From positions 739,359 through 803,358 of the forward strand of contig JBFWOS010000003.1 in assembly GCA_050250375.1 (NCBI GenBank): a stretch of 64,000 nucleotides of DNA, given 5' to 3'. This document shows positions 1-24,627 of this stretch, one piece after another. A program made the translations under genes and the position numbers. Below the pieces are notes generated by a model that did not search any database, had not been told where the DNA came from, and saw only the letters and a program-made list of their open reading frames with translations. Source of the DNA: Candidatus Omnitrophota bacterium. Its GTDB lineage: Bacteria > Omnitrophota > Gorgyraeia > Zapsychrales > Zapsychraceae. The first letter of the stretch is position 1, and each line of letters starts with the position of its first letter.

Positions 1-3000
1 CCCCAGCCAAATCTAAGGCAATCCTTTCGGCTTCGGGACTATGTTCAAGATTTAGATTTACCCGACGGCCCTGTGGTGTTTCTCCCTTGGACGAACTCAG
101 ATCAATAAAAATAACATCACCGGATTCAGTAATAATCGGTGTGGCTTGAGCTTCTAATTTAATATTGTCTTTTTGTAATCTTTCAAATGTACTTTCAAAA
201 TTTTCCGCCATTTTTTGCTTAACCGCATTCCCGCCTTCTTTGGACATGCTTAAAGCCGCCATAGCCAAATCTTCCCCAACGTGCAAATCAATTCCGCGTT
301 CAGCGATGGCCTCTCTAAAGGATTTTTCATATCCCGTACCCAACAATGTTTTGAGGTCAATATTGGTAATATGCCCAACATCTCCAGTCTTAATAGCTTC
401 AATAATCTGTTCTGGTGTCATTCTTGAAAGTTCAAGTCTTTGAACAGAAAGCTGTGGACCCTCTTTACCCGACAACAATTCACCCGTCCGGATTCTCCCA
501 GCCCAAATAGCTGTTTGTTCTGAGTTTTGCCGCAATTGCGAGGCATCAGTTTCAACAGAAAGAACAAAAGGCGCTTGAAGTTTTCTGCCTAATTTTTGAG
601 ACAACTGTTCATACCGCACCTTTAATTCAGCCGCAATGGCCGGAACAGAAACCGAACTTTTACCTGAACCGGTCGCACCGGCGACAGAATAAATCTCACC
701 TTTCCCGGCTTCACCAGACATTACTTGCCGTTCTACTAAATCAAGTTGATAGTCTAATTGGTCTTTTAATGCCGCGTCCATATTAACCTGTTCTTGGTTG
801 CGACCTTTTTGCATAGCATTTCGCAACGGACCAACTAATTCGTCTTCTGTTGTTCTTTGCTTATCCTTTAATCCATCCGAAGCACCGACGCGCAGGCGAG
901 ACGTTGATGTTTCAGCTGAAGTTCCTCTTCTGGACATTAAGAACGGGAGGGTGGTTGAAAGTATTCCGGTTGGCGGACCGGTGATTGGAGGAGTAAGAAT
1001 ATCCGGCAACTTAAGCGGACTATCCGGAGCGCGCGGCTGTAAGCCGCTGGCTTTTTCCGCAATAGTCCGTCCCTGACCTGCTTCCCCAACATACCCTAAC
1101 ACATTTTCAACAAAATCATGCGGCGTGCTTGTAGACAGCCTATCCGCTACTTCAGCAGACACGACCACTTTTCCCAAATCCATCATATCTTTTTGACGGG
1201 TGCGAGCCATTTCAGAAATTTCATGCAATCGAACAGAACCTTCACCATTATGGATTAAAACTGTTCGGGTGCGCCCATTGCTGCCAGAACCTTGCTGTGA
1301 ATACCAAAGACCAGACCGACCAATGGATTCCGCACTTGAAGCCAGAGGATCAATATATTCATAAACTTCAATGGCATTACCTTCAGTAATACGTACCCTT
1401 AACTGTCCATTACTATCCCGGAATTCTCTTACGCTTAAAGGTGATGTCCCCTGTCCTAATTGCTGCCGGGTCTCTGTCCAATTTTCCCGTCCACCGCCTT
1501 GCGCTTCTAATCTGACAATTTGGGTGTTCACAAGCATTTCAACTTGAGAATTAGTTAAACTTCGCGCACCATCCGATGCGCCTGTAGATGAATCAGAAGC
1601 CATATTAGTTGTTGGATTATTTGCCCTCCACTCTCGTAACTCGCTTACTTGCGCAGATCGCCATCCATTAAACTCAGCATTTTGAGCTGCTAATTGTTCT
1701 GCCTGTGAACGACTTAAAGGTGTTCCGCTTGTTTGTTCCGCTTGACCTTTAGAATCCGCCATGATTTGATCTACATTAGTAGTTTTTTCCGGAGCAAATC
1801 TTAGAGCTTGTTCTAATATGTCCGCCCCTTCGACATTTCCGCGCGAATGAAGATCCTTTGCCTGCTGAATTGTCACCTCAAATACGCCTCTTCCTCCAGA
1901 TGTTAACGCTAATCCTAATTGGTCTGCTTCAAATCCTGTCCTAGATCCGACAGAACCCGTTTCTCCACTGCCGATACCAGTTGGCCCTCTTCGAGTAGAA
2001 GGAGTTATACCCGCTCCACTTCCCCCAGCCAAAGGCCCCTCTTCAAGTCCCGGGATGGTGCGACCTCTTCCGCCTGCCGCAAAGCCCGGCAAACTGTAAA
2101 ATGCTACCTGACTGGCCATTTCATCAACCTTTTGATCCACATAATTTCTTTCCGCATTCGCTTTAAATTGGGCCGCATCGGCGCCGGTTAATTCCTCATA
2201 ACCACGACTTCGTCTTCGGGAATTTTCTTCTCTAAGCGCTTGTTCAGCGGCAGCTGGGGCTGACGATTGTATAGATTGTATGAATAAATCATTTCCTCTA
2301 ATCATATTGGCTGTAATTTGATGGATGCTTGTTAGCTTTGCTACCGTAGCCAATTGCGAATGCATATATGGATGCGCCATCAGGGTGTCAAATGCCCCAG
2401 CCACATATTTTGTTTCTCCTGTAGCTGTCGTTCGGGCAAAGGCAATTGAAGATAATCTTTTTTGACCTAAAGCTAATGGCAAAGCTATGTCCGTACCCAT
2501 ATCAAATCCGGAAAGCATATGAACCAACATTGAGTTAAATATACCTATTTCTCTTCCTTGCGCATCAACGAGGAATAATTTATTTAAAGCGCCCCTGAAA
2601 TGTTGCGCCATTGTTTTATTATCATTTCCCATAGAAGATGTAATTATTCCTTCCACCGGAACCGTCATGGCCGCAAAGGCCGGCATAATTAAGGCAAAAT
2701 CCGCGGCCCCAAACATTGTGACAGACCGAACCAACTGTGGATTGTCTAGAAGAACCCGCAAACTCAATTGTTCCTTTGCTAATTCACCCAATACCTGCTG
2801 GCGAGCAAACTGCAACCCTCCGCGCATTGCGCCCATCACCCCACCGATAGCGCCACCTCCCAACGCATATAAAAGAGTGTTACCGGATAACAACGATTCA
2901 CTTACACTTTTTCCATTAGCCAAATTCGCAGAGACCCCCACACCATACCCCAATAATGCCCCCGAACCGGAGCCTAAAGCACTTTGACGTGCTATATATC

Positions 3001-6000
3001 CACCCAAAGTTTCATTGGTAAAAAATTTCCCAAGCCCTTGTTTAGTTGAACTGCTTAGCAACAGACTGTCTCTTAAAGGAAGGCCTTGCGGATTAACTCC
3101 CTTTGCCCATGCCGCCATCCTATTTACTGATCCTACTACTTCTGTTTTTGGCATACTTATTCCAATGGCCTCGGCTAACGACGATCCCCCGAAGTAAGAC
3201 GAAACAAAATAACCCGCTGCGGCGTTCAATAAGTATCCTGTTAGCCCATATTCCACAGGTTTTCCGTCTTTATCTATCTTATAATAAGTTTCCGCATGAG
3301 CTCCTAGCGCACCCATTAGGGCAAACCTTGGCCCTAATAAGCTTCCTACGCCTCGCTTAACGGCGACCTCTTGACCAAATAATTTAAAAATTTGCCCGCC
3401 GCCCATTTGAAGCGCTTGCATATTTGTCCCCAAACGCCCCCTAGATAATATTCCAGGTAAATTACGCCCTCCCAATACAGTGCCTAAAGCAGCTCCAACC
3501 AAAAAATCACCTGCAGTAGCACCAATTCCATTATTATGCTGTCCATCCCGAGCAAAATCTGCTCCAGCGCCACGAGCCATATTAAATACGCCTCCTGGCA
3601 GTGCACGCGTCATAATCACCCGTCGGGTGGCTTCTGTCATTGAGATGCCTAATATTTTTGTATTTTGAAGATTTAACGCTCGGCCAGCAATTAAAAAATC
3701 TTGGAAGGTTGCCGTTTCTTTCAACCCAAGGGTATAAATATTCATGAACCGTTGTCCTGCGGCCGTTTTAAGTAATCCCAAACCCAGTCCGCCTACAACC
3801 AACGCCCCCGCAAATCCAGCCCCATAACCTTGAGCAAAAGACTTTATAAACTCATACCCACTAAAGTCTTTCCCAGACGCAATTACGCCGCCAAGATATC
3901 CTGCTTGATTTCCTAACCCGGCAATTAAACCGAAATCTCTTGCTCCAACAAATAAATTCCTTGCTGACGTAGATGTCAACGCTGAAGCCACGGCCGCACC
4001 TCTGGCGCCGCCCACATATGTAAATGCACGCGTTAATAGTCCAGGCGTTGCTGCTACTGTTGCTGCTCCGGCCTCGGCCGCAGCGCCAGCCTTTACACCA
4101 CCGCCAAGCATGGTAAGACCCCGGCCAACAGCAAGCACCGAAAGCGGCGCAGAAGCCCCAACTAAAGCCCAATTTCCTAAATTATTTCCAATATTATCCC
4201 ATCCGCCGGACATAACATTATAACTCGCACCAAGCCCAGTTGCCAACGCTGATGTCGCCGCTGATAATTCTAAAAATCCAACCACTCGAGCTAAATTTGG
4301 GGCATTTTGAATACCCACTCTTGCCAACGTATAAGTACCAGCCGTTAACATTGCTGTGGTTGTATATCTAGTGGTCGCAGTACCAACTGTTCCCAAGAAA
4401 CCAAATCTTAACGGTGTGATTGCGCCTAAGACCCCATACAAAGCAATTTCTCCCCCCGTGAGGTGTCTACCCGTTTCACCGTGTTTTAAAATGTCCGCAC
4501 CTATGACTGATGTGGCAGCGACCCCTGTTGCAATAAGGCCACCAGCTAAAACTTTGGAACCAGCTACAGATGGATCAAAAAACGTACTAACAATTCCGAA
4601 AATGGCTCCACCAACGATTAATGTGTATCCGCCGAGTTCAGACCAAGTGACCGCATCATTCACGGCTAACATCGGAGTCCCGTATTGCATCATCTGATCG
4701 ACAGACATTTTTGACAACACCAAATCCATCTGTTCCCGATTAACTCTTCTCATCGCATCAACATATGCCGGATTAATAGCCCCACTATCTAAGGTAAACG
4801 AAATCCCATCAATAGCATTCTCCCGAATACTGTAATAACGGTCTCTATCGCTTGAACTTGTCAATATGCGCGCTAGGCCAATTTGTTCTTCTGAGGATTG
4901 CCCTAACATAGAACCATCAAACAATAAATCATCATCATTACCGAAAACGGTTGATCGAGCAAAAAAGAAATTTTTTGCCCTTTGCAACGCCCCCTCAAAG
5001 TTGTGAATTGAAGCTACTTCCTGCTGAAGTGCGGCACGCTGTTCTTTTAACTGAGTCAACCGTTGTCTGTCCGTTGGACTTAATCTATCAATTGCCAATT
5101 GGTCTATATCGACGTAATCATAGGGCCCCACACCCATCCCCATGTCTCCCCCTCCGCTATTAGCGAAATAATCTGTCCAATGCCTTCCAGATCTAATAAT
5201 GGCTCTTATCTGACTATTTAAGGAATCAACCTGGTCTTCTTTCGCTGAAAGCGTGCGCGCTAAAGCAGACCTTTCATCCTCTAAAGCAAGTTCATTTTGT
5301 GCATCCTGCAGTAACGATTCGGTTATTTGCCGATATCGTTCAGACTGGACTATTGTATGAAACTCTCTTGATTGTGAATAAAATGCTGCGGCAAATTGTT
5401 CCCTAGTAGCCGATGTGCCGTTTTCGTTAAAATACAATACATCTGGTAAATTGAATGGATTTCCTTCCCTATTATCTCGAACCAGGGTGTACATTGTCAT
5501 ACCACCAACTGTTCGCTTTGTTCCATCGGGATCTGTCACCTCGATTCCTCTGATCCGTTGGGCCTGATAATTCGGGAAAAATTTCCTCCCCTGAGGTGTG
5601 CTTATAAGAGCTCCATTTATTAATCGACCATTCACCTCCAAACCAAAAGAATTTATTACCGCATGTACTTCGTCTCCTTCTTTAACGAAGCTCAAATTCT
5701 GGATAAGATCCCCTCGCATTCTTGTGTGACGATTAATCGTTGCTTGATCATCCCCATAGTAAATATTTTCAAAGTTGCGTTCTAATATGCTCTCAACATT
5801 CGTCTCTCCTCCCAGAAAAGCATAAATAACTTGCTCCGTAGTTCCCCGCCTTGTTACCCCGTATAAGAGGACAGGCGCCCTGTCCGTAATACCGCCCGCA
5901 TTAGAAAGCGTTATAGATTTAGCCTGTGAAAACTCAGGAAACACACCAGCGCGAGGAATTCCGCGCTCAGAATCAGCTCCCGCATAATATTTCATTTCAA

Positions 6001-9000
6001 AATTTCGATCTACGATTGTTGTGCTATCCTGACCCCATAACGGAAAATCCTGCATGACATTCCCTGTCGAACCTTCTGCGCGGAGAGTAGAGTCCAACCG
6101 AATGACAATTTCTTTATTTTCATCGCGTGAAAAAATCCTTCCAGGTAAATCCGAAGGAGTAGGCTGAATTGTCGGATCATCTTGCTGAGTAGACCCAATA
6201 GCTAAGGATAATCGGCCATCGCTTCCTAGAATAATTTTTGTTAAAACTGTTTCGCCTTCCCCTCTAACACGGGTTGTCTGAATAACATTTTCTTTGCCCC
6301 GATCCAAGAAGATATCCGGAGAAGACTCCCTGTAACCTGCTTCCAATCTACCGTCAGCCGTAGCATCTTGCCTAACCCTTGCCGCCACCTCTCTGGCTTG
6401 GGTCCTGGCTACATTTTCATCCAGCTGACCGGACGCGGTTCGTCCATTAATATCGTAGGTTCTGCCATCATTCATCTGAACCCGAATCACGCCCGTTTCG
6501 CGGTCAACGACAACTTCTCCTATCTTAGTATTATCACTTCGCCTGATATCCTCTCTTACTACGTTCTGTTGAGCATTGGCTCCTGGTAACGCTGAGGCGT
6601 TAACAAACACTTCCCCACCTTGAAGGATAAGCGCATCCCGCAATTTTCCTGTCCTGTCACGATATAGGTATACATTATTTCTTCCTGTAATATATGTTAC
6701 AGCTCGCTCTATCCCACCCCTCCGTGAATAGTTTGACCATACCTCACCAGTCGGGTTGTTCAAATATGTCGCAAATCCTCCGTCCGCGCTTGTTAATGTT
6801 TCCCCATTATCTCTGAAATTGATTAAACGACCGTCATCGACAAGATCGCCAACTATCCGGACATTATCCGCATACATACTCCATTGATTGGTAAAATTGT
6901 AATAACGTGAATTGCCTCTGGCGTCCATGCTAATAATTGATCCGCCTGCATTAGTCGAAAGCTTGTTGGTTTGACTCACCTGAGCCGTTCCCCCGCCTCT
7001 TTCATTGGCAATTACTTGAGAAACACTATTTGAAACAATCAATTGGTTTGCTCGATTTATCGCCGCATTGGGTTCATGCTTAAAGAAATAATTGGAATTG
7101 GACATAAACTCATTAAAGGTCATACCTTGATCGGTGATTCCATAAAACAATGCCGTCTCAGTATTGACTCCGCCCGCCTGATAAAATTGATCGCCTTCTG
7201 CACGAGGATCTGAATCCGTCGCTAAAACATTATTTTTGATTGTTTGAGCATCAGCACTGGCCTGTCGTCCAGCTCTAAGAAGAACCAATCCCCGGCCGCC
7301 ACCCTCATCAAGCGATTCAACTACCGCAGTTTGACCGGGATCACGGGAATCTGTTGTCCTTTGCTCAGCCGGCGGATTAGGCGCGTTTGGATTTTTATTT
7401 TTGTCAGGATCTAGATAATCTCTTATCACTTGAACCCCGTCGCTTGCTCCAATGAACAATTTGTTCCCGTCGCCAACCCGGGCTAAATTAAAGGTGGAAA
7501 CTTCTTCTCCCGAGCGACCTCGAATAAAATCAACCGCTTGTCCTAATGCTGTATAATAAACTGGTCCACTGGCGTCTCTTCTGCTATCAGGCGTGTTGTT
7601 TCCTCTTGAAGCGACAATTTCCCCCGCTTCCATACTCATGGAAGCTTCCGGGGAAGCAACTATAGTACCGTCAAAATATCGGGCGCTTCTGATCAGACCG
7701 CCCTCCCTAATCGTTCTCGTTCCAACAATCCTTAATTCACTTATACCAAACCCGACATTTGAAGGTACAGCACCTTCAGGTAAAGCTGGCGGTCGATCAG
7801 CACCAAACCCAGTTGCGTTTTCGGTGCCGGCGATCGCCCTTGCGACAGCTTGTTCAACATTATAAAAATCTCCCTGGGACTCGCTTCGCATGTTAAACCG
7901 TCCGTTTGCATCAATACCACCAATGGAACGTCGATTAACCGTCATCCATACTGTACCGCCCTGGGTTTCCGTTCTTCCATTGAATTCCGGGGATGTGCTA
8001 TTAAAAAGCCGCCCCATACGAACATCCCCGTTAATAGGATCGACCGTTAAATTCCCCTGCTTAATATTACCCGTCAACGGCACCAAACTGTTATTGGCCA
8101 GCAACATCTCAAATCGGCCCGTTGCCAAGTTAATGCCTGGTGAAGCGGCAGTTATTGTTGCCGTTCCGTCCGTATCAATCGGTACATTTAATGTCGCAGC
8201 CTCGGAGCCGGATTGATTGTCCCGTTGAGGTTCAGCTTCAGATTCAGCTTCAGTCGACTGAGTACTCGCTCTTAACTCATTTTTTATAGCTTCGGCTTGG
8301 GTAATAAATTCCTGCACGCCTTCCGTACTTTCCCCCCTGGCCGTTCTTCGAATAAATTCCGGATTTCTCACTTGATCCTCCGGTCTAATTGTTCTCTCAA
8401 GCCCTGGAGACCCAGCCGTCACAACACCAGTTAAGGTGTGGTACGTTAACCCCGCATTAACTGTTTCACTTATGATCGACCGGGCAGATATGGCTCCCAT
8501 CGCATCAGAAATGAGAATTTGATTTTGTTGACCGTTTTGACGTTCCGCCGGTGTAAATATCATAAGCCCTGTCGGCCCATCTCTTCGAATACCGCTAAAT
8601 AAAGCCAAATACGCTTCTCTTCTGGGCGTTAACCCTCCTCCTGCCATTGTTTCAGCACTCACCTCGCTGGCCAATCTGCGCTCTTGTGAAGCATCTGAAA
8701 CAACCACGTCTTGTTGGCTAATAACATAAGCTTCGCCTCGATTCGTAGGATCAACCGTTATCCATTCTTTGCGATCACCGTCATATACAAACGGCCGCCC
8801 TCTATTGGCAACAGCAACATAACCAGCCTCCCGGACAGCAGAAGCCCCCTCGCCAATTCGAGTTGACGCCCTGCCGGACAACGACAAGGCCAAGGCGCCT
8901 CGATTTAACTCATTTGGCTGTACCATTTCAGCGCCTATAATTTGACCATCTGGGCTGCCCCCTTCTCTCACAGGGCGAATGATATAAACCGTGCCCTGTT

Positions 9001-12000
9001 CCACTTGGCCATATACAGGCATCCCCTGATCATCTTGATAGAGAGCATTTGTAGTAGGATTATAATAAACTTGTTGGAATGGATTCTTACCAAAAACGGG
9101 ATCTCTTCTAACCAATTGGTCATTGCCGTCTCTGACTATATTGCTTGTACGAATGACGCTTCCCATTCCAATTTTAATGCCGTAATTTTGCTGAAAAGCG
9201 GATTCTCCATAAAAATCAAATGGTTCTACATACGCCTGGTCATACCGATCTCTTAACCCTAAAATAACAAGACCATTAATGGCAGCCTCTCCGGCAGGAT
9301 CAGGCCTCAAGGCCTGTGCGATAGTGGCTTCAGTTTTTACCTCATTTGATCTATTTTGATTTGACTCTGTAACAGGGGCGCGTAAAAATGGTGCTATTGT
9401 TGAATATACAGAATTTGTAACAAACATGCTCCTGGCCGCAGCACTATTATCATATCCTAAAAATCCCTGCGTAATGCCTGCACGTACAACTCGGTCTGTT
9501 TCGGGATTATAACGAAGCCTGAACAATGAATTCCCTAAATCTTCGGGATTAAGTTGCGGCTCTTGAATAAGCGTTCCGTCTGCGTTTCTAGCCCCCAGTC
9601 TCGCTTGTCCCATTTGATTGGCTTTATCAGGATTAATTATTCCTTCAGAAAAGAGAGCCCTAGAGGCCAGTGGCGTTCCAGCAGCTAAAACAGACTCCCT
9701 TGTCTCTGGTACAGAATTGGGGTCTGAATCGGCAGGACTGGTTCGAATACTAGTCGTTACGGGAGCCCCGCTTGCCAAGACTTGGTTCCCATTTTTATCC
9801 AGGATGAAAACATCATAAAATGCACGACCATTAATTACTTTTTCAATGTTAATAGTGCCATCCGCGTTCCTTGATAAAGTAGGGTCATTCGGATTGATTG
9901 CATCTGCTAAAATAACCTGGGTCGCAATCATCCCATCACCACCCGTCAACCCTTGTAAAAATGCTTCATTAATTCCAAGAGCTCTTAAACTGGCTCGTGT
10001 ATTTTCATCAATTGGACCTGCCGCAAGCATCGTCGCAGCCGGCCTGATCGCTTGGGCTCGATATAAAATATTACCAGCAAGATCCCGCGTAATAATTGTC
10101 ATACTGCTGCCCAAATCAACACCACCCCGACCAATATTAAACGATATTGGTGCTGTTAAAAATTGATTAGCCCTACTCGACAGAAGCCTTTTACCATCTG
10201 CACTATATATTTCTTCCCTGTCGGATGCCGTATAATTTATATTTACTGATATTCCATTAGCATAGGCCCCTCTGGCTAATGATAACATTCCGTTTACCCG
10301 GCCACTTACGGCAGGATCTATCCCCATTGCAGCAGCCAATTCTTCTGCTCTTTCAAGTTTTAACCCTGTAGATTCAGGATTTCTTACCAATACACCATTA
10401 TTTCCATCAGGGTTAGCACCTGCAATTAAATAGTGCTGGCCAATTAATCCTTGAATAGCTTTTCTGGTTTCTTGATTATCGTTTGTTATAATTTGAATGG
10501 TTTGCTGAAGAGTAAGAAAGTCAGACCTTCTGGTTCCGATAAATTTTAATACACCTGCTCCTTCTTCGCCCTCTTTAGGGGTAACAAAAGCAGCCGTTGA
10601 AATACCCTTAGTCAATGATGAGGCATCTAATGTAATTCCATCTTGTGCATTTACGACAGGATTATTAGAAACAAACAGTTCAAGTTGATTATTAAGATTA
10701 GCAACTACTTGAGATGAACCCGGAGCTCTTACCCGGGCTCCCCCAAATACAGTGTATACATCCCCCCGGCTTTCTATTTCCCGATTATGCGCCAATCGGG
10801 CACTATACTGCTGCGCAACAAACTCTCTCTGTTGCTCTATGGTAAATTCTTCTCCATCCCGCTCTCTCCGCAACCTTTCAAGATTTAAACGTCCCGCCGC
10901 AAATTGTTCTGCCTCATTCCTATCCCAACCGATTGCCCTTCTAAATCCAATCGGAGGACCCGGTTCAAATAGCGCATCACGATATGCTCTTTGGGACAAG
11001 TATAGCGCATCGTCCTTACTTTTCCCTTCTGATATAGCGTTTCTATAAGCTACAATTGACCGAGCAAATGCCTCTGACTCAGAACCAACAACCTTATTAT
11101 TCGTTAAAATAAAATTATCCGGCGTGTTTCCTGTTTTTCCTTGAGTGCTGGTTCTTAACGCTCCAAATTGAAATTCTTCACCACGCCTATTCATTAATCG
11201 GCCTTCTGAAATTTCTACATCCACGCCGTTTGCATTCATATAAGAAATAAAAGCAGGATCAACCAATGCTTGAATCTGCGTATCTTGGTTAGTTAATAAC
11301 GCAAGCTCGCCATCTTGATCAATTCGTACACGCTCGCCCGTAGTCGAGTTTACTCTATATAAGTACCCGTCATCGTCCCGTTGGAACATATACTGCCCGT
11401 CATACATATCTTGCATGGAAGTAAATCGTCCACCATTCCATACGCCCGCTGTTTCAGAAGTCAACCCAAAGACACTACTTAAAACTAGCGGATCAAATCG
11501 TTGAATCATTTTAAAACGTAATGTCCCCCCGCCAAGCCTGTCTACCATATTCAATCCATTCTGACCAAACCCGATAAAATCAGCACGATACCCGACTCCT
11601 GTTTCTGAAGGATTATTCTGATCAAATTCAAAACCATAGTGTCCGCCAAACAAATATGTTTGTCTGCTTTCTACACCAGCAGCATCTCTAAGCGCAAAGC
11701 TCCATCTTGTTGGCGCCCTAGCCTGGATACCTAAAGTATTTAAAGATTTGGTAAATGCGCTATTTTCACCAAGAATATTTACCGTATTTGAAGCTAATAC
11801 CGCATCTACAAAAGTTGGATTTTGTATATTTACTGAAGATGAACGAAGCGTATTGAGAGTTGCGTTAACATCGGATGCCGTTGCATCGTAGGCACCGAAT
11901 AACACCCCCCCCATTGTAATTAATTCTTCGACTCCTCGCAATCCAGGACTGTTTCCCCCTATTAAATATTCCCCTATATAACTATTAAACGTATCATAAA

Positions 12001-15000
12001 AATAATTACTCATGTTATTAAGAGGATTAATTTGATTGAACAAAGATGTAATTACTTGATTATGTATATCGTCATCTGATTTAACTTCACTTGCGTAGCC
12101 CATCTCAATTAATTCTTGATTGCGTTCCTTCATTCTCTTTTCTGTTAGCTCACGGTTTCTTTGAAACTGCGCGACTCTAATAGGACTTCCCCAGATTCCA
12201 GCCATATCTGCCTGCTGCATCCATCGCCCCATAAGAGCATTTCTAGATCTGACTGTCATTTCCGCATCAGACATCGTCGCATCAGCGCCTCCCCTTTCAT
12301 ACAAATCTCGCTGTAGCATATTCGTAGGGTCTGTCCCATTTAAAGTTCCCATAGCCACTAACGCCCCAAAAAGCGGCTGTCCAATTTCTTGGATTGCTCG
12401 CACTGCCATGTCGCCCCATATACCGCCATAAGTACTGTTGTATTGATTATTTATTTCAGTGGAAATACAGCTCGCCTCTTTACCTTTACAACTGGCAATA
12501 ACAGCCCCCATATCAACATACTGCGACCTTTCTGCTGTTTGCTCGATATCATCTAATTGTTGACTTGTTAAATCAGGATTATTGGCAAGAGCCAATTCCC
12601 GGGCAATGGCGCCCCTTCTGTTAGAAATAATTGCATCCGCCGCCGTCCCTATGCCCACATCAAGAGCACCCAAAATCAAAAGACCTGTAAAACGTATGCC
12701 CGCCATTTTTTGCCTGTCCAACTGATTAATCCCAGCACGATCTGATGTTGTCGCACTATCTTCCCATCGATCAAGTCCCGTAGCCACAAAATATCTAACT
12801 AAGCCACTAAACAAGATGGCCGACAATCCTAACATATTGTCTTTACTAGCTTGATTAGTAACTTCTGAAATTAAATTAGCTCTGGCCGTTCCTGTAATTG
12901 CCGACCGCCTCTCTTCCTCGGTGCGAGTCGCATTCGCTATACTAGCCTCCGTACTCCTTTCACTAAGAACGCTCTCCCCAGATGCGGATGCAGTCTGTGT
13001 GGCGCTTTCACCACCAATCCCCCAACTAAATCCTAATAAAGAGAAGAATGACATTTTTTTTGAAGTGCTTAAATATTCATTGTATCTCTCCTGAGCTTGT
13101 CGCTTAGCTTCTTCCGGATTATTAGATAGCGGCCTTGTGTCATTTTCCAACTGGGCCTTTGCATGATTTTCCGCCAAGACTTCCTTACCCCAAGCAATTG
13201 TAGTTCTAATAACGCTCTCAAGAACCATTAATGCCAAAGAATCCGGCTCTAACTTCTTATTAAACAATTTATCAAAAGCCTCAATAACAGCCATTTTAAT
13301 TGCTAGACCAAAAAGCCGATCTATAATAAAGTCGAGTTGCAAACTAAACGATGCCGTCAACCGATCCGTAAAATATTGACCAAATCCACCACTATTGGTT
13401 GTACCTGCTGGAGCGTTCGCTGCTCCCCCAGAAGCCGTATCACCACCAGAAGAACCATTAGTATTATTAGTATTTCTGTTAGTACCGTTATTTTTTTCTA
13501 ATCCGCCTTGTCGCCCCGCCCCAACACCTGTCTCCATAAAATAATCAAACGGCGTAGAGGCAATATCTCCGGCAAAGTTTCCGATTGCGCCAGACACTAT
13601 TCCAACAAAAGCTTGCTCTAAAATTCCAAGAGAGTCATCCTCATCATCAATAAACATCTTTGAGAGTTCTTCAGCCACCAATTTTTGCACATACATAGAG
13701 GTCAATGAATACGCCAACGCCGCGGGCAATTGCTGCGCGACTTGAGAAAATATTTGACCAAAAGTTGCTGAAAGCGTTGCTGACTTTGCTGTTCCAGCAG
13801 CCGCTTGTTCTCCGCCAACTTTTAAGGCAGCCCCCTTAAATAAAGACCCACCAACAGCGATAGCCATATTTAACAACATGGCTTGATTTTCGTTGCACAC
13901 CCCCTTCATGTAACAAACTGTTGCTACAGCTGATGCAAATTGGGATAGCCCATATGAAAAATTAAACGCTGCCGCAAAACTAGCAAATGAATCAAATGCT
14001 CCCGCACTGGAACTAAACAACTCTGCCAACTTAGCCAACAATTGGGCCAGTTTGCTCATTTCATTTGCAGCCTTAGCGGCTTCTGCTGCAGCGGTCAGCG
14101 CTTGCCCTATACCCCAAGTCACAACAATGATGACAAGAGTTGTGATAACCCCGCTCCATTCTTCGCTGGAGCTTACAAGACCAGGTAAATCATCTGATTG
14201 ATCACGCCATTTATCACCCCACACAAACGCCGCCATTGAATCTGGAATGAATTCAATTTCTAAGTCTTTTTTATTCTCCAGGTTTTTAGCAAGAACGAAA
14301 CCGCTTAATTCTGAAATAAATACATCTTTTGCTAAATATACTGGAAGACCTATATCATTATAATAAATTTTATTATCATCAATAGCTGTGACCGTCACAA
14401 AGTGTTCGTTCTTGAAACTGGCAATGAAAGGGGGTTCCAATTTTACAACATCTTCAGGGGCTAATTTAGCATTTTTAAAATTTAAGCCATACGCATTTAC
14501 GATTTTACTGATTGAATAAAGAGATGTTTTTAGCTTTTTCTCCCCCGGCTTAACAATATTACTCATTAAATCTACCGTCAAGGAGGTCACAGATAACTCT
14601 TCTAATTCAATATCAAATTCATAAGATTTTAAAATATCCTTAAGAGAATAAACACCACAATTTAACGGATGAATTTCAGGATTCGTTAACCAATTTGTTA
14701 TCTGAGAAATATAGCTATCATTAAAATTATTATTATTTTCTAATAGAATACTATAAATTTCATTATTTTTATTGGAAGATTTAGGCAACTCAAGCTTTAC
14801 GCGTGAATTCTCTTGGTAGGCTATTTGATCTAATAAATTTTTAATGCTTTTAGAAATTTTGTTTGAAACTAAATCACTGGAAGATTCACCCTGAATGTGT
14901 GAGGTAGTTTGCGAAGGATAAACACTCTTATCTCCCCATAAGACTAAAGGATTATAATTAAACGCCCAACTAGCCTGCTCTGGAACAAAAACTAGTATAA

Positions 15001-15241
15001 TAACTAAAGATACAGCCCTCATCCACGACTTAAATCGACTTCGAAAACGAACATCAGATCTATTAGATTGGACATATGGGCCAAGATCTAACTGATTTTG
15101 ATACACGATTCCCGCATCATTATCAGCAAAATTTAACTCCAAAGATTTCATTTGGGATAAATCTTGCCAATCATCGGATTTCGGTTTTTTTAAGTTACCC
15201 CGATTGATATCTAAATTGTCCTCTTCAGAACCCATATCCAT
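1..15241 (-). CDS. Giant protein, edge-truncated (C-terminus off window; more than 5,080 aa in window). N-terminal TM helix, Gly/Asn/Thr low-complexity linker, long Gly/Ala-rich hydrophobic (glycine-zipper-like) segments, and Walker A GATGSGKSS near the window edge.
   Basis: Manual translation from ATG at 15241 (MDMGSEEDNLDINRGNLKKPKSDDWQDL...AVSLVIILVFVPEQASWAF...) runs to position 1 without a stop. The ORF track has no long ORF in any frame over 1..15.2 kb, as expected if the only long frame hits the window edge. The P-loop at 656..682 was translated base by base: MSGEAGKGEIYSVAGATGSGKSSV. Confidence 0.7.
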   Translation of the reverse strand, partial: MDMGSEEDNLDINRGNLKKPKSDDWQDLSQMKSLELNFADNDAGIVYQNQLDLGPYVQSNRSDVRFRSRFKSWMRAVSLVIILVFVPEQASWAFNYNPLVLWGDKSVYPSQTTSHIQGESSSDLVSNKISKSIKNLLDQIAYQENSRVKLELPKSSNKNNEIYSILLENNNNFNDSYISQITNWLTNPEIHPLNCGVYSLKDILKSYEFDIELEELSVTSLTVDLMSNIVKPGEKKLKTSLYSISKIVNAYGLNFKNAKLAPEDVVKLEPPFIASFKNEHFVTVTAIDDNKIYYNDIGLPVYLAKDVFISELSGFVLAKNLENKKDLEIEFIPDSMAAFVWGDKWRDQSDDLPGLVSSSEEWSGVITTLVIIVVTWGIGQALTAAAEAAKAANEMSKLAQLLAKLAELFSSSAGAFDSFASFAAAFNFSYGLSQFASAVATVCYMKGVCNENQAMLLNMAIAVGGSLFKGAALKVGGEQAAAGTAKSATLSATFGQIFSQVAQQLPAALAYSLTSMYVQKLVAEELSKMFIDDEDDSLGILEQAFVGIVSGAIGNFAGDIASTPFDYFMETGVGAGRQGGLEKNNGTNRNTNNTNGSSGGDTASGGAANAPAGTTNSGGFGQYFTDRLTASFSLQLDFIIDRLFGLAIKMAVIEAFDKLFNKKLEPDSLALMVLESVIRTTIAWGKEVLAENHAKAQLENDTRPLSNNPEEAKRQAQERYNEYLSTSKKMSFFSLLGFSWGIGGESATQTASASGESVLSERSTEASIANATRTEEERRSAITGTARANLISEVTNQASKDNMLGLSAILFSGLVRYFVATGLDRWEDSATTSDRAGINQLDRQKMAGIRFTGLLILGALDVGIGTAADAIISNRRGAIARELALANNPDLTSQQLDDIEQTAERSQYVDMGAVIASCKGKEASCISTEINNQYNSTYGGIWGDMAVRAIQEIGQPLFGALVAMGTLNGTDPTNMLQRDLYERGGADATMSDAEMTVRSRNALMGRWMQQADMAGIWGSPIRVAQFQRNRELTEKRMKERNQELIEMGYASEVKSDDDIHNQVITSLFNQINPLNNMSNYFYDTFNSYIGEYLIGGNSPGLRGVEELITMGGVLFGAYDATASDVNATLNTLRSSSVNIQNPTFVDAVLASNTVNILGENSAFTKSLNTLGIQARAPTRWSFALRDAAGVESRQTYLFGGHYGFEFDQNNPSETGVGYRADFIGFGQNGLNMVDRLGGGTLRFKMIQRFDPLVLSSVFGLTSETAGVWNGGRFTSMQDMYDGQYMFQRDDDGYLYRVNSTTGERVRIDQDGELALLTNQDTQIQALVDPAFISYMNANGVDVEISEGRLMNRRGEEFQFGALRTSTQGKTGNTPDNFILTNNKVVGSESEAFARSIVAYRNAISEGKSKDDALYLSQRAYRDALFEPGPPIGFRRAIGWDRNEAEQFAAGRLNLERLRRERDGEEFTIEQQREFVAQQYSARLAHNREIESRGDVYTVFGGARVRAPGSSQVVANLNNQLELFVSNNPVVNAQDGITLDASSLTKGISTAAFVTPKEGEEGAGVLKFIGTRRSDFLTLQQTIQIITNDNQETRKAIQGLIGQHYLIAGANPDGNNGVLVRNPESTGLKLERAEELAAAMGIDPAVSGRVNGMLSLARGAYANGISVNINYTASDREEIYSADGKRLLSSRANQFLTAPISFNIGRGGVDLGSSMTIITRDLAGNILYRAQAIRPAATMLAAGPIDENTRASLRALGINEAFLQGLTGGDGMIATQVILADAINPNDPTLSRNADGTINIEKVINGRAFYDVFILDKNGNQVLASGAPVTTSIRTSPADSDPNSVPETRESVLAAGTPLASRALFSEGIINPDKANQMGQARLGARNADGTLIQEPQLNPEDLGNSLFRLRYNPETDRVVRAGITQGFLGYDNSAAARSMFVTNSVYSTIAPFLRAPVTESNQNRSNEVKTEATIAQALRPDPAGEAAINGLVILGLRDRYDQAYVEPFDFYGESAFQQNYGIKIGMGSVIRTSNIVRDGNDQLVRRDPVFGKNPFQQVYYNPTTNALYQDDQGMPVYGQVEQGTVYIIRPVREGGSPDGQIIGAEMVQPNELNRGALALSLSGRASTRIGEGASAVREAGYVAVANRGRPFVYDGDRKEWITVDPTNRGEAYVISQQDVVVSDASQERRLASEVSAETMAGGGLTPRREAYLALFSGIRRDGPTGLMIFTPAERQNGQQNQILISDAMGAISARSIISETVNAGLTYHTLTGVVTAGSPGLERTIRPEDQVRNPEFIRRTARGESTEGVQEFITQAEAIKNELRASTQSTEAESEAEPQRDNQSGSEAATLNVPIDTDGTATITAASPGINLATGRFEMLLANNSLVPLTGNIKQGNLTVDPINGDVRMGRLFNSTSPEFNGRTETQGGTVWMTVNRRSIGGIDANGRFNMRSESQGDFYNVEQAVARAIAGTENATGFGADRPPALPEGAVPSNVGFGISELRIVGTRTIREGGLIRSARYFDGTIVASPEASMSMEAGEIVASRGNNTPDSRRDASGPVYYTALGQAVDFIRGRSGEEVSTFNLARVGDGNKLFIGASDGVQVIRDYLDPDKNKNPNAPNPPAEQRTTDSRDPGQTAVVESLDEGGGRGLVLLRAGRQASADAQTIKNNVLATDSDPRAEGDQFYQAGGVNTETALFYGITDQGMTFNEFMSNSNYFFKHEPNAAINRANQLIVSNSVSQVIANERGGGTAQVSQTNKLSTNAGGSIISMDARGNSRYYNFTNQWSMYADNVRIVGDLVDDGRLINFRDNGETLTSADGGFATYLNNPTGEVWSNYSRRGGIERAVTYITGRNNVYLYRDRTGKLRDALILQGGEVFVNASALPGANAQQNVVREDIRRSDNTKIGEVVVDRETGVIRVQMNDGRTYDINGRTASGQLDENVARTQAREVAARVRQDATADGRLEAGYRESSPDIFLDRGKENVIQTTRVRGEGETVLTKIILGSDGRLSLAIGSTQQDDPTIQPTPSDLPGRIFSRDENKEIVIRLDSTLRAEGSTGNVMQDFPLWGQDSTTIVDRNFEMKYYAGADSERGIPRAGVFPEFSQAKSITLSNAGGITDRAPVLLYGVTRRGTTEQVIYAFLGGETNVESILERNFENIYYGDDQATINRHTRMRGDLIQNLSFVKEGDEVHAVINSFGLEVNGRLINGALISTPQGRKFFPNYQAQRIRGIEVTDPDGTKRTVGGMTMYTLVRDNREGNPFNLPDVLYFNENGTSATREQFAAAFYSQSREFHTIVQSERYRQITESLLQDAQNELALEDERSALARTLSAKEDQVDSLNSQIRAIIRSGRHWTDYFANSGGGDMGMGVGPYDYVDIDQLAIDRLSPTDRQRLTQLKEQRAALQQEVASIHNFEGALQRAKNFFFARSTVFGNDDDLLFDGSMLGQSSEEQIGLARILTSSSDRDRYYSIRENAIDGISFTLDSGAINPAYVDAMRRVNREQMDLVLSKMSVDQMMQYGTPMLAVNDAVTWSELGGYTLIVGGAIFGIVSTFFDPSVAGSKVLAGGLIATGVAATSVIGADILKHGETGRHLTGGEIALYGVLGAITPLRFGFLGTVGTATTRYTTTAMLTAGTYTLARVGIQNAPNLARVVGFLELSAATSALATGLGASYNVMSGGWDNIGNNLGNWALVGASAPLSVLAVGRGLTMLGGGVKAGAAAEAGAATVAATPGLLTRAFTYVGGARGAAVASALTSTSARNLFVGARDFGLIAGLGNQAGYLGGVIASGKDFSGYEFIKSFAQGYGAGFAGALVVGGLGLGLLKTAAGQRFMNIYTLGLKETATFQDFLIAGRALNLQNTKILGISMTEATRRVIMTRALPGGVFNMARGAGADFARDGQHNNGIGATAGDFLVGAALGTVLGGRNLPGILSRGRLGTNMQALQMGGGQIFKLFGQEVAVKRGVGSLLGPRFALMGALGAHAETYYKIDKDGKPVEYGLTGYLLNAAAGYFVSSYFGGSSLAEAIGISMPKTEVVGSVNRMAAWAKGVNPQGLPLRDSLLLSSSTKQGLGKFFTNETLGGYIARQSALGSGSGALLGYGVGVSANLANGKSVSESLLSGNTLLYALGGGAIGGVMGAMRGGLQFARQQVLGELAKEQLSLRVLLDNPQLVRSVTMFGAADFALIMPAFAAMTVPVEGIITSSMGNDNKTMAQHFRGALNKLFLVDAQGREIGIFNSMLVHMLSGFDMGTDIALPLALGQKRLSSIAFARTTATGETKYVAGAFDTLMAHPYMHSQLATVAKLTSIHQITANMIRGNDLFIQSIQSSAPAAAEQALREENSRRRSRGYEELTGADAAQFKANAERNYVDQKVDEMASQVAFYSLPGFAAGGRGRTIPGLEEGPLAGGSGAGITPSTRRGPTGIGSGETGSVGSRTGFEADQLGLALTSGGRGVFEVTIQQAKDLHSRGNVEGADILEQALRFAPEKTTNVDQIMADSKGQAEQTSGTPLSRSQAEQLAAQNAEFNGWRSAQVSELREWRANNPTTNMASDSSTGASDGARSLTNSQVEMLVNTQIVRLEAQGGGRENWTETRQQLGQGTSPLSVREFRDSNGQLRVRITEGNAIEVYEYIDPLASSAESIGRSGLWYSQQGSGSNGRTRTVLIHNGEGSVRLHEISEMARTRQKDMMDLGKVVVSAEVADRLSTSTPHDFVENVLGYVGEAGQGRTIAEKASGLQPRAPDSPLKLPDILTPPITGPPTGILSTTLPFLMSRRGTSAETSTSRLRVGASDGLKDKQRTTEDELVGPLRNAMQKGRNQEQVNMDAALKDQLDYQLDLVERQVMSGEAGKGEIYSVAGATGSGKSSVSVPAIAAELKVRYEQLSQKLGRKLQAPFVLSVETDASQLRQNSEQTAIWAGRIRTGELLSGKEGPQLSVQRLELSRMTPEQIIEAIKTGDVGHITNIDLKTLLGTGYEKSFREAIAERGIDLHVGEDLAMAALSMSKEGGNAVKQKMAENFESTFERLQKDNIKLEAQATPIITESGDVIFIDLSSSKGETPQGRRVNLNLEHSPEAERIALDLAG

Positions 15242-16841
15242 AGCCTTTTATGTCCAATCTAAGCACCCCAACGACATAATTTTTTAGGACTATCCATACA
15301 CACCCAAACCAGCCCCATACTTACGGATCGTGAATTTAGCACCACCCCTAAAAACACAAATTTTAACAAAGAATACATGAATTCAAGTTTTTTATATAAA
15401 CTAACCGCACCCTTGTTATAAATGACCATATTCGACCTTACCTTGGACAGATTGATTTAAAGACAAAAAAAATGACCACCCTTTTTGAGGTAGCCATTAT
15501 AAATTGACGCTGACTGGATTGAAAAAATTGAATTTTGGTTAAGGATCTATTCATTCTTATCCCTTTTCGTCAATCTAGCGTTGATTTATCTTAAGATCGA
15601 AATTTGGGAATTTATAACGATAAAAGCGCAAATTATGTTTATTCCCCTATAACTTGAGTATAATATATTATAACTGTCGGAACACAATGTTTCAAGTTTT
15701 TTTATACTTAAAAATCTTTTATTTTCAAAGATTTACAACATTTTAATGGCGAAATGAATATTTATTTTCTGCAACAAAATTTAATTCAATTTTTTTATTA
15801 ATACAATAAACTAAAATAAATTTTTAAGAATTATATATATAAAATATACTATATTTATGTATATATCAAGAAAAATTTCAAATATTTTTTAGAGATACAT
15901 CTTTTGAAGAATTAATCGTCGACGATAAAATTTAATTTTTGAGATTTTAGTAAATATTTTCTTGAAATTAATTTTTTAAAGTTAATTTCTATTTGATTTT
16001 TTATGTTTAAACTAAATACCTTCTTTTTCTTTTTTTAAAATATTCAAACTAGCAACTCCGAAGTTTCTTTTTTCGATGAACCCTCAATAATGTCCATTCT
16101 GCGCTCTAGTATGGCCTATTTTTAATTTTTTTATTTTGGACAATAGATTCTATGACTCCCTCTATTTCTTTCAAAATTAGGCCAAATAAGCGAAAAATAG
16201 AGCCATTTAAAATTCAAGTGCCCTGCTTGCATTGATTATTTCGTTTTTTTATGCCCCATATGTTGTATTAAATCTTTTGTTGGGCTCAGTATCTGGTGCC
16301 TACACTAGTTCGATTTTGAAATCCCCCCCCTAATTACAACCATCTTGATATATTTGGTGTTAAGTATCGCGTTTAATTCTTTATAAAAATGACGGCCCTA
16401 TTAAACTTAAAATGAATTAACAGAATTTTTAATCATTTTATAATTTTTGCATAAACATATAATTTAATATAAAAACCTGTGCTTCTAGAAAATCTACCTG
16501 GGGTAATTATTGGGCATATTTCAGTAAGAATAATAATGCTTTAAACAAATATTTCTGTTCTTTTACATATCGCAATATTCGCATCTAAAAGCCAACCATA
16601 ACACCTAATGTATCTATATCATTCACTATATATATTTAATTAAAATTTCTGATTAAAAGTGCTACCCAACACCATAAATACTTATGTACAAGATGACTTA
16701 TTAAAAATATTAATAAACATGGTTATTCCTATTTAAATGTTAGTTATTAAAAACTTATAAATTTTGAAATTTAAGAAAGAAATCTAATAATCCACGATCA
16801 GAAAATAACAATCAAGTAGGGATAATAAAATTTCGACAGGA
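15242..16841. other. 1.6 kb AT-rich non-coding region between the Tad locus 3' end and the giant gene 5' end; contains a C8 homopolymer at 16323..16330.
   Basis: No ORF of 60 aa or more in any frame; extreme AT content; runs of A/T; poly-C tract read directly. Confidence 0.5.
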
Positions 16842-17723
16842 TTATCCGCCGGAAAGATGTTCGAATGGATTGTTTTCGACAAAATCTAATAGGATGGGAC
16901 CTGCAACAAGAATACCAACAACAGGAAAGATAAAAAGTAACAAGGGCACCAACATTTTCATAGGTGCTTTGAGAGCCAATTGTTCCCCTCTACGATACCT
17001 CGCAAGCCGCATATCTTCTGAAAGAATATTTAACGCTTCGGTTACGGAGGTCCCCATTTTATCAGCTTGAATTAATGTGCGAGAAAAAGTCGATAAATCT
17101 GGCAATTCATACCTTGCTGCCAAATCTTTTATTGCATCTCTTCGGGTCTTTCCAACATTAATTTCTTGAAGGACAACGTTTAATTCATCAATCATAACTG
17201 ACGGCGGCGACTTTTCAACAACCCATTTCAATGAAAGCATAAAGTCCAACCCTGCATTGACACACAACCCGAGCAAATCAATAGCATCCGGCAACTCTTT
17301 GACTATAATCGCCTTAACTTTTTTGATTTTTCCGCGTATTAGCATTTCTGGAAGAAGGTATCCGACCCCGAGACTCATAAATAACCAAAACATCATCATA
17401 TCAGGGTTAATTGCAGGAAATGTTACGAATAGTACTAATATAATACATAATTCTTTGGCGAGTATAAATTCTTCAGGCGTAATATTAATATGCGCTACAG
17501 CCAAATCCTTTTCAATTCTCTGTCGCATGGCACCTTGACAAACAGGTTTATTCAATTTTGCCACAATTCTTACAACTGAAGATAAACTCTTCTTCTTCTT
17601 TGGGGCTGTCGGCTGTATCCCTAATGCACTTAGAGTTGGTCTATGTTCCCATTCAACAGGAATTAGCCCTAGGATAAAGAAAAATATACATAAATAAGTG
17701 TTAATTAACAATATCGTGAACAC
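16842..17723 (-). CDS. tadC: Tad pilus inner-membrane platform protein TadC (T2SS-F domain)
   Basis: 293 aa, multiple TM helices, GspF/TadC-like C-terminal region (…TSVTEALNILSEDMRLARYRRGEQLALKAPMKMLVPLLLFIFPVVGIL…); adjacent to the tadB-like gene. Confidence 0.75.
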   Translation of the reverse strand: MFTILLINTYLCIFFFILGLIPVEWEHRPTLSALGIQPTAPKKKKSLSSVVRIVAKLNKPVCQGAMRQRIEKDLAVAHINITPEEFILAKELCIILVLFVTFPAINPDMMMFWLFMSLGVGYLLPEMLIRGKIKKVKAIIVKELPDAIDLLGLCVNAGLDFMLSLKWVVEKSPPSVMIDELNVVLQEINVGKTRRDAIKDLAARYELPDLSTFSRTLIQADKMGTSVTEALNILSEDMRLARYRRGEQLALKAPMKMLVPLLLFIFPVVGILVAGPILLDFVENNPFEHLSGG

Positions 17724-17725
17724 GT

Positions 17726-18583
17726 TTAAAAGTCCTTGAAAGTACTAATTTTCCACACCATATATGCTCCAAACGACCAAGAAAATCCAGCATAAATTAG
17801 CATTGTTCTACCTAATTTTGACGTGAACATATTATCAAACATTTGCGGATTGGTTGAATATATAACAAAACCGAAGCCGATAGGAAGTAAAGTTAGTACT
17901 GCGCCCTGAATTTTACCTTGAAGCGTTAGTGTATCCAAATTTTGTTGTATTTTTCTGCTTTCACGGATATTTGTAACAATGCGATTAAAAATTACAGGTA
18001 GGTTTCCGCCCGTTTCTCTTGCTAATAAGATAGCGGTAATCATTTGTTGTAATGCTATGGAGGACATCCTGTTATATAAATGATTTAGAGCTTCTTCTAA
18101 TGAAACTCCCATCTTATTTTCACCTAAGACAATCCCAAACTCTTTTCGAATGGGATCCGGCATTTCTTGTTCAACAGCTTCCATTGCCTGCACCAAACTC
18201 AATCCGCCCCGAAAAGAACTCGACATAATCATTAGCGCATCAATCAATTGACCGTCAAATTTATCCCGGTTCTTTTTGGTTAACATTTGTATATAAATAC
18301 CCGGAAATAAAAGGCCCAAAATGACGCCAAAAATAATCCCAAAAAATCGCATTTCCTCTGGAAAAATGAAATAAAACCCTGCTGCCAATATTAATGGAGC
18401 TAAAATAAATACACGACTAAGCTTCCTAGCATCTGTACGGGACATCAACTTTTCCATGTTATTGGATAGCTTTTGTTGACGGCGCTCGCTAATCACTGCG
18501 GTTCTGCTATAAACACTAGGAATAAGTTGATAGCCAATTAATGTTACTGTCGCAAATACTAATAATAAAATAATTATTAACAT
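17726..18583 (-). CDS. tadB: Tad pilus inner-membrane platform protein TadB (T2SS-F domain)
   Basis: 285 aa, T2SS-F-like (…GVSLEEALNHLYNRMSSIALQQMITAILLARETGGNLPVIFNRI…), TM helices; position in the Tad locus. Confidence 0.75.
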   Translation of the reverse strand: MLIIILLLVFATVTLIGYQLIPSVYSRTAVISERRQQKLSNNMEKLMSRTDARKLSRVFILAPLILAAGFYFIFPEEMRFFGIIFGVILGLLFPGIYIQMLTKKNRDKFDGQLIDALMIMSSSFRGGLSLVQAMEAVEQEMPDPIRKEFGIVLGENKMGVSLEEALNHLYNRMSSIALQQMITAILLARETGGNLPVIFNRIVTNIRESRKIQQNLDTLTLQGKIQGAVLTLLPIGFGFVIYSTNPQMFDNMFTSKLGRTMLIYAGFSWSFGAYMVWKISTFKDF

Positions 18584-18741
18584 TCTAAATTCCCAATTTC
18601 AATATTTTAATATAATTCTATTATACAATATAAAATTAAGATTACCAGTATTGAAAACACAATTTTTTACATTTGATATTAATCTGCGGGGGGATAATTT
18701 TGGAATTTAAGCCATTAAATCAGAAAGGTTTGAAGGCGAAG

Positions 18742-19101: not shown

Positions 19102-19120
19102 AATGATCCCAAAATAATTT

Positions 19121-23002: not shown

Positions 23003-23020
23003 TCTTACCGACCCATTAAA

Positions 23021-24618: not shown

Positions 24619-24627
24619 TATTGTATG

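Follow-up and report, generated by a model that had tools for sequence, protein, structure and literature searches.

The window analysed here is a stretch of 64,000 nt from a Candidatus Omnitrophota bacterium (assembly GCA_050250375.1, contig JBFWOS010000003.1, positions 739,359 to 803,358), and its left end, positions 1 to 15241, is occupied by a single minus-strand open reading frame (ORF), the beginning of a giant gene that continues past the window edge and lies downstream of a Tad pilus locus. The encoded protein starts with a conserved head carrying a C39 peptidase domain, and by its sequence and gene neighborhood it is a member of the described class of Omnitrophota giant membrane proteins with a C39 head and a linkage to Tad genes. 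The features of the giant gene in the window are given below with the evidence for each. Residues are counted from ATG 15241, while the numbering of the full-length database protein, P0011, begins two residues later.

1..15241, minus strand: first 5,080 codons (65%) of the giant gene; stop-free translation, codon statistics, identical P0011
13742..15220, minus strand: conserved head module, residues ~8–500; 38–52% identity to the homologues P0001–P0010, 66 genome loci, alignment
14960..15016, minus strand: transmembrane (TM) helix 1, residues 76–94; hydropathy 1.75
14297..14662, minus strand: Peptidase C39 domain (PF03412), residues 194–315; Pfam E 1.1e-8, 35.4 bits against a cut-off of 22
14096..14152, minus strand: TM helix 2, residues 364–382; hydropathy 1.92, alignment
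13380..13520, minus strand: Gly/Asn/Thr low-complexity linker, residues 574–621; direct translation
4637..12625, minus strand: hypervariable body without recognisable domain, residues ~873–3535; profile searches and tblastn against loci
2642..4636, minus strand: region rich in Gly and Ala that contains clustered TM-like helices, residues 3536–4200; hydropathy, composition
2090..2809, minus strand: patch of weak conservation that surrounds the last TM helix and extends past it, residues ~4145–4384; 25–35% identity to loci L041, L048, L058 and L059
872..1579, minus strand: module X, residues 4555–4790 (P0011 4553–4785)
656..679, minus strand: strict Walker A / SF2 motif I GATGSGKS, residues 4855–4862; regular expression, sub-threshold ResIII match with E 0.19
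2..871, minus strand: start of a putative nucleoside triphosphatase (NTPase) region, continuing past the window edge to ~residue 5,480; position only

The open frame and the complete gene

Translation of the reverse complement of positions 2..15241 yields 5,080 codons without a stop, opening with MDMGSEED at ATG 15241 and preceded by an in-frame stop three codons upstream, while the other two frames of the minus strand contain 324 and 455 stops over the same interval. At 38% GC, where about 6.6% of random codons are stops, the computed probability that a frame of this length stays open by chance is about e^-340. The codon likelihood, with the other genes of the window taken as reference, is higher in the true frame than in both shifted frames in all eleven 500-codon tiles, and the order GC1 > GC2 > GC3 is kept along the entire ORF. 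The codon statistics are uniform across the tiles and show no sign of a chimera; nucleotide tandem repeats are absent from the ORF. The giant ORF is a real coding sequence.

The full-length protein was found by an exhaustive HMMER search with residues 4281–5080 as the query. This protein, P0011, comprises 7,820 aa, is 100% identical to the query, and matches the window ORF exactly from residue 3 to residue 5080 (5,078 residues). The complete gene thus measures 23.5 kb, with about 2,740 codons (~8.2 kb) lying past window position 1, and has 7,820 or 7,822 codons, as the start may be either ATG 15241 or the second ATG at 15235, the one used in the database call. Internal repeats are found only beyond the window, three of ~105 aa and three of ~84 aa (P0011 residues 5717–6011 and 6383–6665; Smith-Waterman z from 6 to 15), and the 5,078 in-window residues contain none.

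Much of what a preceding sequence-only reading had reported for this region is borne out. It had described an uninterrupted minus-strand frame from ATG 15241, open at the window edge, and this agrees with the 5,080 stop-free codons and their consistent codon statistics; internal stops or misassembly, which would have spoken against such a frame, are not seen within the window. The TM helix that it placed near residue 80 corresponds to the hydropathy helix at 76–94, and its Gly/Asn/Thr tract at about 13380..13520 is recovered by translation as GAGRQGGLEKNNGTNRNTNNTNGSSGGDTASGGAANAPAGTTNSGGFG. It was also correct that a Tad pilus locus adjoins the gene (Pfam hits at 16842..35440) and that adhesin, RHS and cadherin modules are lacking, as Pfam has no matches to such domains in the giant protein. 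On the other hand, it missed Peptidase_C39 at residues 194–315, which is the only Pfam domain in the entire 7,820 aa and belongs to the conserved N-terminal head by which this protein class is recognised. Apart from C39, searches of all in-window tiles against Pfam, NCBIfam and PHROGs return nothing, and so do a PDB sequence search with in-window residues 81–5,080 and a Pfam search of the out-of-window tiles of P0011.

The conserved head, its family and the Tad locus

The head is the sole part of the protein that can be aligned across the whole family. In the alignment its elements follow each other in a fixed order, that is, a basic stretch, TM helix 1, the motif PEQxSWAFNYNP, the C39 domain, the motif FVWGxKWxDxSxxLPG, TM helix 2 and a Cys pair. 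TM helix 1, kept in 11 of 12 aligned sequences, has the basic stretch RFRSRFKSWMR before it and the conserved PEQxSWAFNYNP after it, and TM helix 2 is followed by Ala-rich hydrophobic segments and the conserved Cys pair (residues 443 and 449). The catalytic Cys of the C39 domain is residue 195 (nt 14657–14659, in HPLNCG), EHFV and NDIG contain the His and the Asp, respectively, and all three residues are invariant across 11–12 aligned sequences. Moreover, the profile of the family C39 segment matches the double-glycine protease LahT150 (PDB 6MPZ) with E 1.6e-6, the catalytic residues being aligned to ECG, NHFVV and NDP of the latter. Judging by these residues, the peptidase of the giant protein is probably active. 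By inspection only, no convincing conserved double-glycine site is seen in the head or in the neighboring prepilins. Processing of the Flp prepilins by the C39 domain was considered and rejected, the prepilin G/A-Q sites being unlike GG sites.

A homologue search with residues 1–1200 identified ten proteins (P0001–P0010), all of them with PF03412; the identity, 38–52%, extends over the first ~480 residues only, and most of these proteins are ‘partial’. Where a source is named, it is Candidatus Omnitrophica or Omnitrophota, with the exception of one Elusimicrobia. The head alignment was further used to scan one genome per species, and the head was found at 66 loci, nearly all of them in metagenome-assembled genomes of Candidatus Omnitrophota, including Ca. 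Zapsychrus, Ca. Aceula and Ca. Omnitrophus. Many head-bearing TPA metagenome bins (L013, L016, L020, L025 and others with CAZ- and CAY-type accessions) are titled ‘uncultured Planctomycetales bacterium’, and these titles are probably a taxonomic mislabel.

The linkage with Tad genes is a property of the family. Among the 47 loci whose upstream sequence extends for at least 4.5 kb, 42 encode TadB and TadC ahead of the head-bearing ORF and on its strand, so that the conserved Tad neighborhood in related genomes, for which the sequence-only reading had proposed to look, is indeed observed. Of the 39 loci with at least 9 kb downstream, 35 have a giant ORF open to the end of the fetched DNA (more than 3,600 codons).

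We observe a steep gradient of conservation along the locus. In the four nearest relatives (L005–L008) TadB and TadC are 85–91% identical to those of the window (the partners at this level being Omnitrophota HKST-UBA13, HK-STAS-OMNI-4 and Gw_Eff_bin_307, and also 8_bin.41), the first ~360 residues of the head are 56–68% identical, and residues 428–556, 38–48%. In tblastn searches against these loci, the rest of the protein retains ~30% identity, up to residue 1,982, in L007, the closest relative, and a single 22%-identical stretch (residues 794–1087) in L006, and is undetectable in L005 and L008. By these comparisons, the body of the giant changes much more rapidly than its Tad neighbors.

The Tad locus itself and the other features of the window are as follows.

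16842..35440, minus strand: Tad (type IVc pilus) locus, upstream of and co-oriented with the giant gene; Pfam, prepilin motifs
31914–33590, minus strand: Tad secretin with Secretin and T2SS-T3SS_pil_N domains and a C-terminal TonB_C (E 5e-15); Pfam
29688–31853, minus strand: TadZ-like ParA/AAA_31 and TadA T2SSE ATPase in a single 721-aa ORF
19121–23002 and 24628–26642, minus strand: five paralogous Flp/TadE-type prepilins, then a 1,293-aa ORF; motif G/A-Q-x-x-x-EY
27539–29398, minus strand: 619-aa ORF within the Tad locus, with only weak transposase-type helix-turn-helix (HTH) matches (HTH_Tnp_Tc3_2, HTH_32)
15242..16841: AT-rich gap of 1.6 kb, free of ORFs (none over 56 aa), which separates TadC from the giant gene
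39654–51944: chromosomal origin region, with dnaA, dnaN, gyrB and gyrA (minus strand) diverging from yidC, parA and parB (plus strand)
61993–62147 (plus strand), 54860–55258 (plus strand) and 39510–39583 (minus strand): 6S RNA and four tRNA genes; 6S at 52.9 bits against a gathering score of 46.4

The order of the Tad genes is Rotamase_2 peptidyl-prolyl isomerase, CpaB/RcpC, secretin-TonB_C, TadZ-TadA, five Flp-like prepilins, a 430-aa ORF, the 1,293-aa ORF, TadB and TadC. The fusion with TonB_C is unusual for a secretin of the RcpA/CpaC type, and the 619-aa HTH ORF is situated between the prepilins and TadZ-TadA. All five prepilin ORFs are free of Cys. The 1,293-aa ORF has no Pfam match and is kept beside TadB in most relatives; it contains 58 Cys (4.5%), in contrast to 0.06% in the giant protein. 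No A24 prepilin peptidase is seen within the window. A gap between TadC and the giant gene is present in relatives as well (median 1.1 kb), its sequence is not conserved, and in the 1.6-kb gap of the window neither an Rfam match nor promoter enrichment is found. A terminator-like hairpin with a T-run occurs at 15498–15471 on the minus strand, ~230 nt upstream of the giant start. The origin intergenic region is at 47517–48253, and the giant gene, ~32 kb away, is co-directional with replication.

Membrane segments, composition, module X and the P-loop

The hydropathy peaks of the giant protein are at residues 76–94, 364–382, 846–872, 3536–3582, 3806–3828 and 4174–4200. The cluster at residues 3536–4200 is a probable multi-pass membrane anchor, and the ~3,600 residues after the last strong TM helix contain no further strong TM segment. 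For nt 3200–4700 the sequence-only reading had proposed a Gly/Ala-rich, glycine-zipper-like core with many GxxxG spacings. The composition (18% Gly, 15% Ala) and the presence of TM-like segments agree with this, whereas the zipper was discarded: the segment contains 22 GxxxG, while shuffling its residues gives 20.3 ± 3.9 (z = 0.43), and therefore the spacings reflect the glycine content only.

Cys is nearly absent from the protein, accounting for 5 of 7,820 residues (0.06%), whereas 12 housekeeping proteins encoded in the window contain 0.81% (P = 2e-21); in the family ORFs it constitutes 0.19%. Cys depletion and fast divergence are expected of exported, interaction-facing bacterial proteins. 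Because of this depletion, and because the body diverges faster than the adjacent genes, we infer that the body may be exported or surface-exposed.

Downstream of the membrane cluster lies module X, which a HMMER search finds to be common to P0011 and P0012–P0017; one of these proteins, P0017 (5,637 aa), has the head as well. The module has no known fold. Its core is RLHEIxEMRVxRQ, and the invariant residues include LHExxE...RQ...H...LGY. Motifs of the form h-h-A[SA]DG are present on both sides of the module wherever the flank is present (P0011, P0012, P0013, P0015, P0016, P0017 and the locus L071), with P0013 ending before the downstream copy and P0014 lacking both flanks, and a TGPP proline linker precedes the second, downstream A[SA]DG. 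Such motifs may delimit a module or be sites of processing. ASDG is unlike the GG/GA/GS site preferred by C39 peptidases.

The Walker A motif follows module X and is preceded by the beta-strand-like EIYSVA. The sequence-only reading had reported it at 656..682 as part of a C-terminal P-loop; the motif GATGSGKS is there, at 656–679, but it is not C-terminal, being located at P0011 residue 4,853, or 62% of the protein length, and an NTPase domain around it gains no profile, homologue or usable fold. GATGSGKS fits the SF2 motif I consensus, AxTGSGK[ST]. The strict pattern GxxGxGK[ST] does not occur in 170,896 residues of family ORFs, while a loose Walker A pattern occurs at 0.15 per 1,000 aa, so that about one is expected by chance in a protein of this size; by these counts the instance in the giant protein is only modestly unusual. 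In two relatives, P0017 and L071, the region after module X contains GEGKTL and LDELTDSL, with further SecA-like motifs discernible by eye, and in P0017 this region is collinear with E. coli SecA residues 13–277, at a marginal level (z = 3.3; 4 of 300 shuffles reach the score).

Proposed role, competing readings and known systems

We consider it likely that the locus contains one genuine 23.5-kb Omnitrophota gene for a membrane-anchored giant protein headed by C39 and encoded downstream of a Tad locus, and that this protein acts in export and host contact in the following manner. The head would insert the protein into the inner membrane, and the C39 domain would mature it, cutting either itself or a partner. 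The long, nearly Cys-free and fast-evolving body would be exported and exposed, where it could contact a host or prey cell, working together with the Tad pilus, which would provide attachment and retraction. The region after the TM cluster would stay cytoplasmic, and its P-loop, if functional, could supply the NTP-driven force for export, as has been proposed for the SecA-like domains that other giants of the phylum contain. A host-interaction role is a suggestion consistent with the literature; the cell-surface or host-interaction role put forward in the sequence-only reading is likewise in keeping with the conserved Tad linkage, and is retained here as probable.

Several observations weigh against this reading. 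The length of 7,820 aa comes from a gene call that was probably made on the same assembly, and therefore is no independent validation of the full length. Kyte-Doolittle hydropathy is the sole basis of the topology. Some relatives (L002, L003, L035, L047 and L061) have a short or split gene, which could reflect either frameshift errors or true splitting of the giant gene. For example, L002 (ENA ERZ25039459 contig_38025, 10001–22907) has consecutive ORFs of 968 + 1,943 + 738 + 2,265... aa, and L003 has a 1,198-aa version convergent with the Tad locus. Published giants are of 10,000–147,000 aa, and the protein of the window is below the size cut-offs of both published catalogues (at least 10,000 aa for inclusion and at least 30,000 aa for a ‘giant’); moreover, most of them have enzyme, dockerin or Pfam-detectable SecA_DEAD domains, whereas the window protein has none. 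Most of the adverse evidence concerns the P-loop region. It has no Pfam or NCBIfam match, the best sub-threshold ones being ResIII, AAA_16 and ABC_tran (E ~0.1–0.2), and no match in a PDB sequence search. In a word-indexed database no homologue was found for the complete P-loop region or the C-terminal 800 in-window aa, a weak null, as the protein itself was also missed there; the C-terminal 600 in-window aa identify no related locus among genome and metagenome contigs. The single-sequence AF2 model of the region is unusable (pLDDT 37). Smith-Waterman comparisons with shuffles are not significant either with E. coli SecA (residues 1–650, the sequence verified against PDB; z = 1.2) or with the SecA-like region of P0017 (z = 0.25), hhalign is negative for a SecA-like motor, and PF07517 (SecA_DEAD) has no match in the giant protein at E up to 1–10. 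The only Walker B candidates noted by reading, FVLSVETD and IDLHVGED, are both non-canonical. As the giant protein cannot be aligned to the P0017 region and hhalign is negative, a SecA-type motor is at present a lead from position and literature, not a result.

It is quite possible, though short of probable, that the giant protein has no functional NTPase, its Walker A having arisen by chance or being a relic. Profile, homologue and fold all fail to support an NTPase, chance would yield roughly one loose motif in a protein of this length, the Walker B candidates depart from the canonical form and the region cannot be aligned to its SecA-like counterpart in P0017; against this, the strict motif is found nowhere in 171 kaa of family sequence, it matches the SF2 motif I consensus, and it is placed after the TM cluster and module X, where relatives and published giants have SecA-like motors. 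If functional, the NTPase motif must be cytoplasmic, which, together with the ~3,600 residues lacking a strong TM segment, favors a different topology, that is, a membrane-tethered, essentially cytoplasmic scaffold that would organise or regulate the Tad machinery or metabolism, with a body that is not surface-exposed. Such ‘TM-only’ proteins constitute 46% of the long proteins of Omnitrophota and are predicted to be mostly on the cytoplasmic face (Nielsen and Lui, 2026, bioRxiv 10.64898/2026.06.07.730766). Still, no cytoplasmic enzyme or scaffold repeats are detected in the giant protein, its basic stretch followed by a TM helix resembles a signal anchor that would place C39 outside, and its extreme Cys depletion and very fast divergence are typical of exported, interaction-facing proteins, so that we regard the scaffold as unlikely.

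The combination of a conserved head, a protease domain and a hypervariable remainder, along with A[SA]DG motifs conserved in position around module X, would also suit a polymorphic, toxin-like effector, in which a head for export and processing carries rapidly swapping bodies; each body would be released by cleavage at ASDG or similar motifs and passed on to a target cell, and the protein would not act as a permanent adhesin. No toxin, immunity or Rhs/CDI-type domain is found, however, and ASDG differs from the sites that C39 prefers, which makes this explanation improbable. Finally, giant ORFs in metagenome assemblies are error-prone, this gene is known from one assembly, and the homologous region of L002 is called as several ORFs, all of which could point to an assembly artefact, a chimera or a decaying pseudogene. 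The length of the open frame, with its chance probability of ~e^-340, the uniform codon statistics without nucleotide tandem repeats, the homologous ORFs that stay open in 35 of 39 independent genomes, and the conserved modules at three places along the protein make such an artefact extremely improbable, and the genuine, membrane-anchored and exported giant remains our preferred explanation.

A more far-reaching variant, which we hold to be rather unlikely, is that the conserved parts (the TM-C39-TM head, the ASDG-module X-TGPP-ASDG cassette and the SF2/SecA-like motor) form an uncharacterised system of self-processing and self-export coupled to the Tad pilus. If so, ASDG would be cleavage sites or module boundaries, the motor would thread its own hypervariable body out of the cell, the body would be a fast-evolving determinant of host specificity, and this protein of 7.8 kaa would be a minimal machine, more tractable than giants of 40–147 kaa. 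Few known predicted proteins are as large as the Omnitrophota giants; their class is functionally unexplained, and a hypothesis holds that the predatory or episymbiotic way of life of this widespread and uncultured phylum depends on them. The window protein adds nothing categorically new and is ordinary for its phylum, a compact member of the class that has shed the enzyme domains; at the same time, it isolates the conserved core, in which the C39 head is joined by the TM cluster, by module X between its two ASDG motifs and by a possible motor, and may serve as a convenient minimal target for hypotheses about processing, export and host contact.

Among known systems, giant surface adhesins (RTX proteins of the type I secretion system, T1SS, such as LapA and MpIBP, and Bap-like proteins) are likewise very large and Cys-poor and have a probable surface role in common with the window protein, which differs from them in having multiple TM helices and an N-terminal protease, and in lacking Ig-like, cadherin and RTX repeats and a T1SS C-terminal signal. 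The C39 domains of PCAT/AMS ABC exporters, e.g., LahT150, belong to a common fold family with that of the giant protein, and the Cys, His and Asp catalytic residues align; the latter domain, however, is not fused to an ABC transporter but stands behind the TM helix heading the giant protein, and has an insertion of ~12 residues. With the SecA DEAD-like motor (PF07517) of other Omnitrophota giants the window protein shares an SF2-type motif I after the membrane anchors. The similarity to SecA is more apparent in the relatives P0017 and L071, which have GEGKT and, as motif II, DE(L)TD, and which can be aligned with it collinearly though weakly, whereas the window protein is matched to SecA by none of Pfam, phmmer, Smith-Waterman and hhalign, its Walker B candidates look degenerate, and a preprotein cross-linking domain, if any, is unrecognisable.

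The closest correspondence is with the Tad-linked giants of the phylum. A conserved T2SS/Tad-like locus (T2SS, type II secretion system), comprising Rotamase_2, RcpC, secretin, GspE, ORFs with class-III signals and two GspF, has been described ahead of Omnitrophota giant genes, whose products have an N-terminal C39 near a signal peptide and numerous TM helices, with TM anchors followed by divergent SecA-like domains (West-Roberts et al., 2023, bioRxiv 10.1101/2023.11.21.568195). The same flanks were reported for 13 of 14 giants, along with an architecture cluster defined by PF03412 and bodies that are mostly unique in sequence (Nielsen and Lui, 2026). Lacking TSP3 and repeat domains in Pfam as well, the window protein would belong to the fraction that is Pfam-dark apart from C39. 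In other respects it agrees well with this class: the phylum is the same, as seen from the names of the head homologues, the 66 loci and the identity of TadB and TadC; the same upstream components occur at 16842–35440, on the same strand and in the same order; and the protein has in common with the published giants the N-terminal signal or TM segment beside C39, the TM anchors, the sequence-unique body and the P-loop after the anchors.

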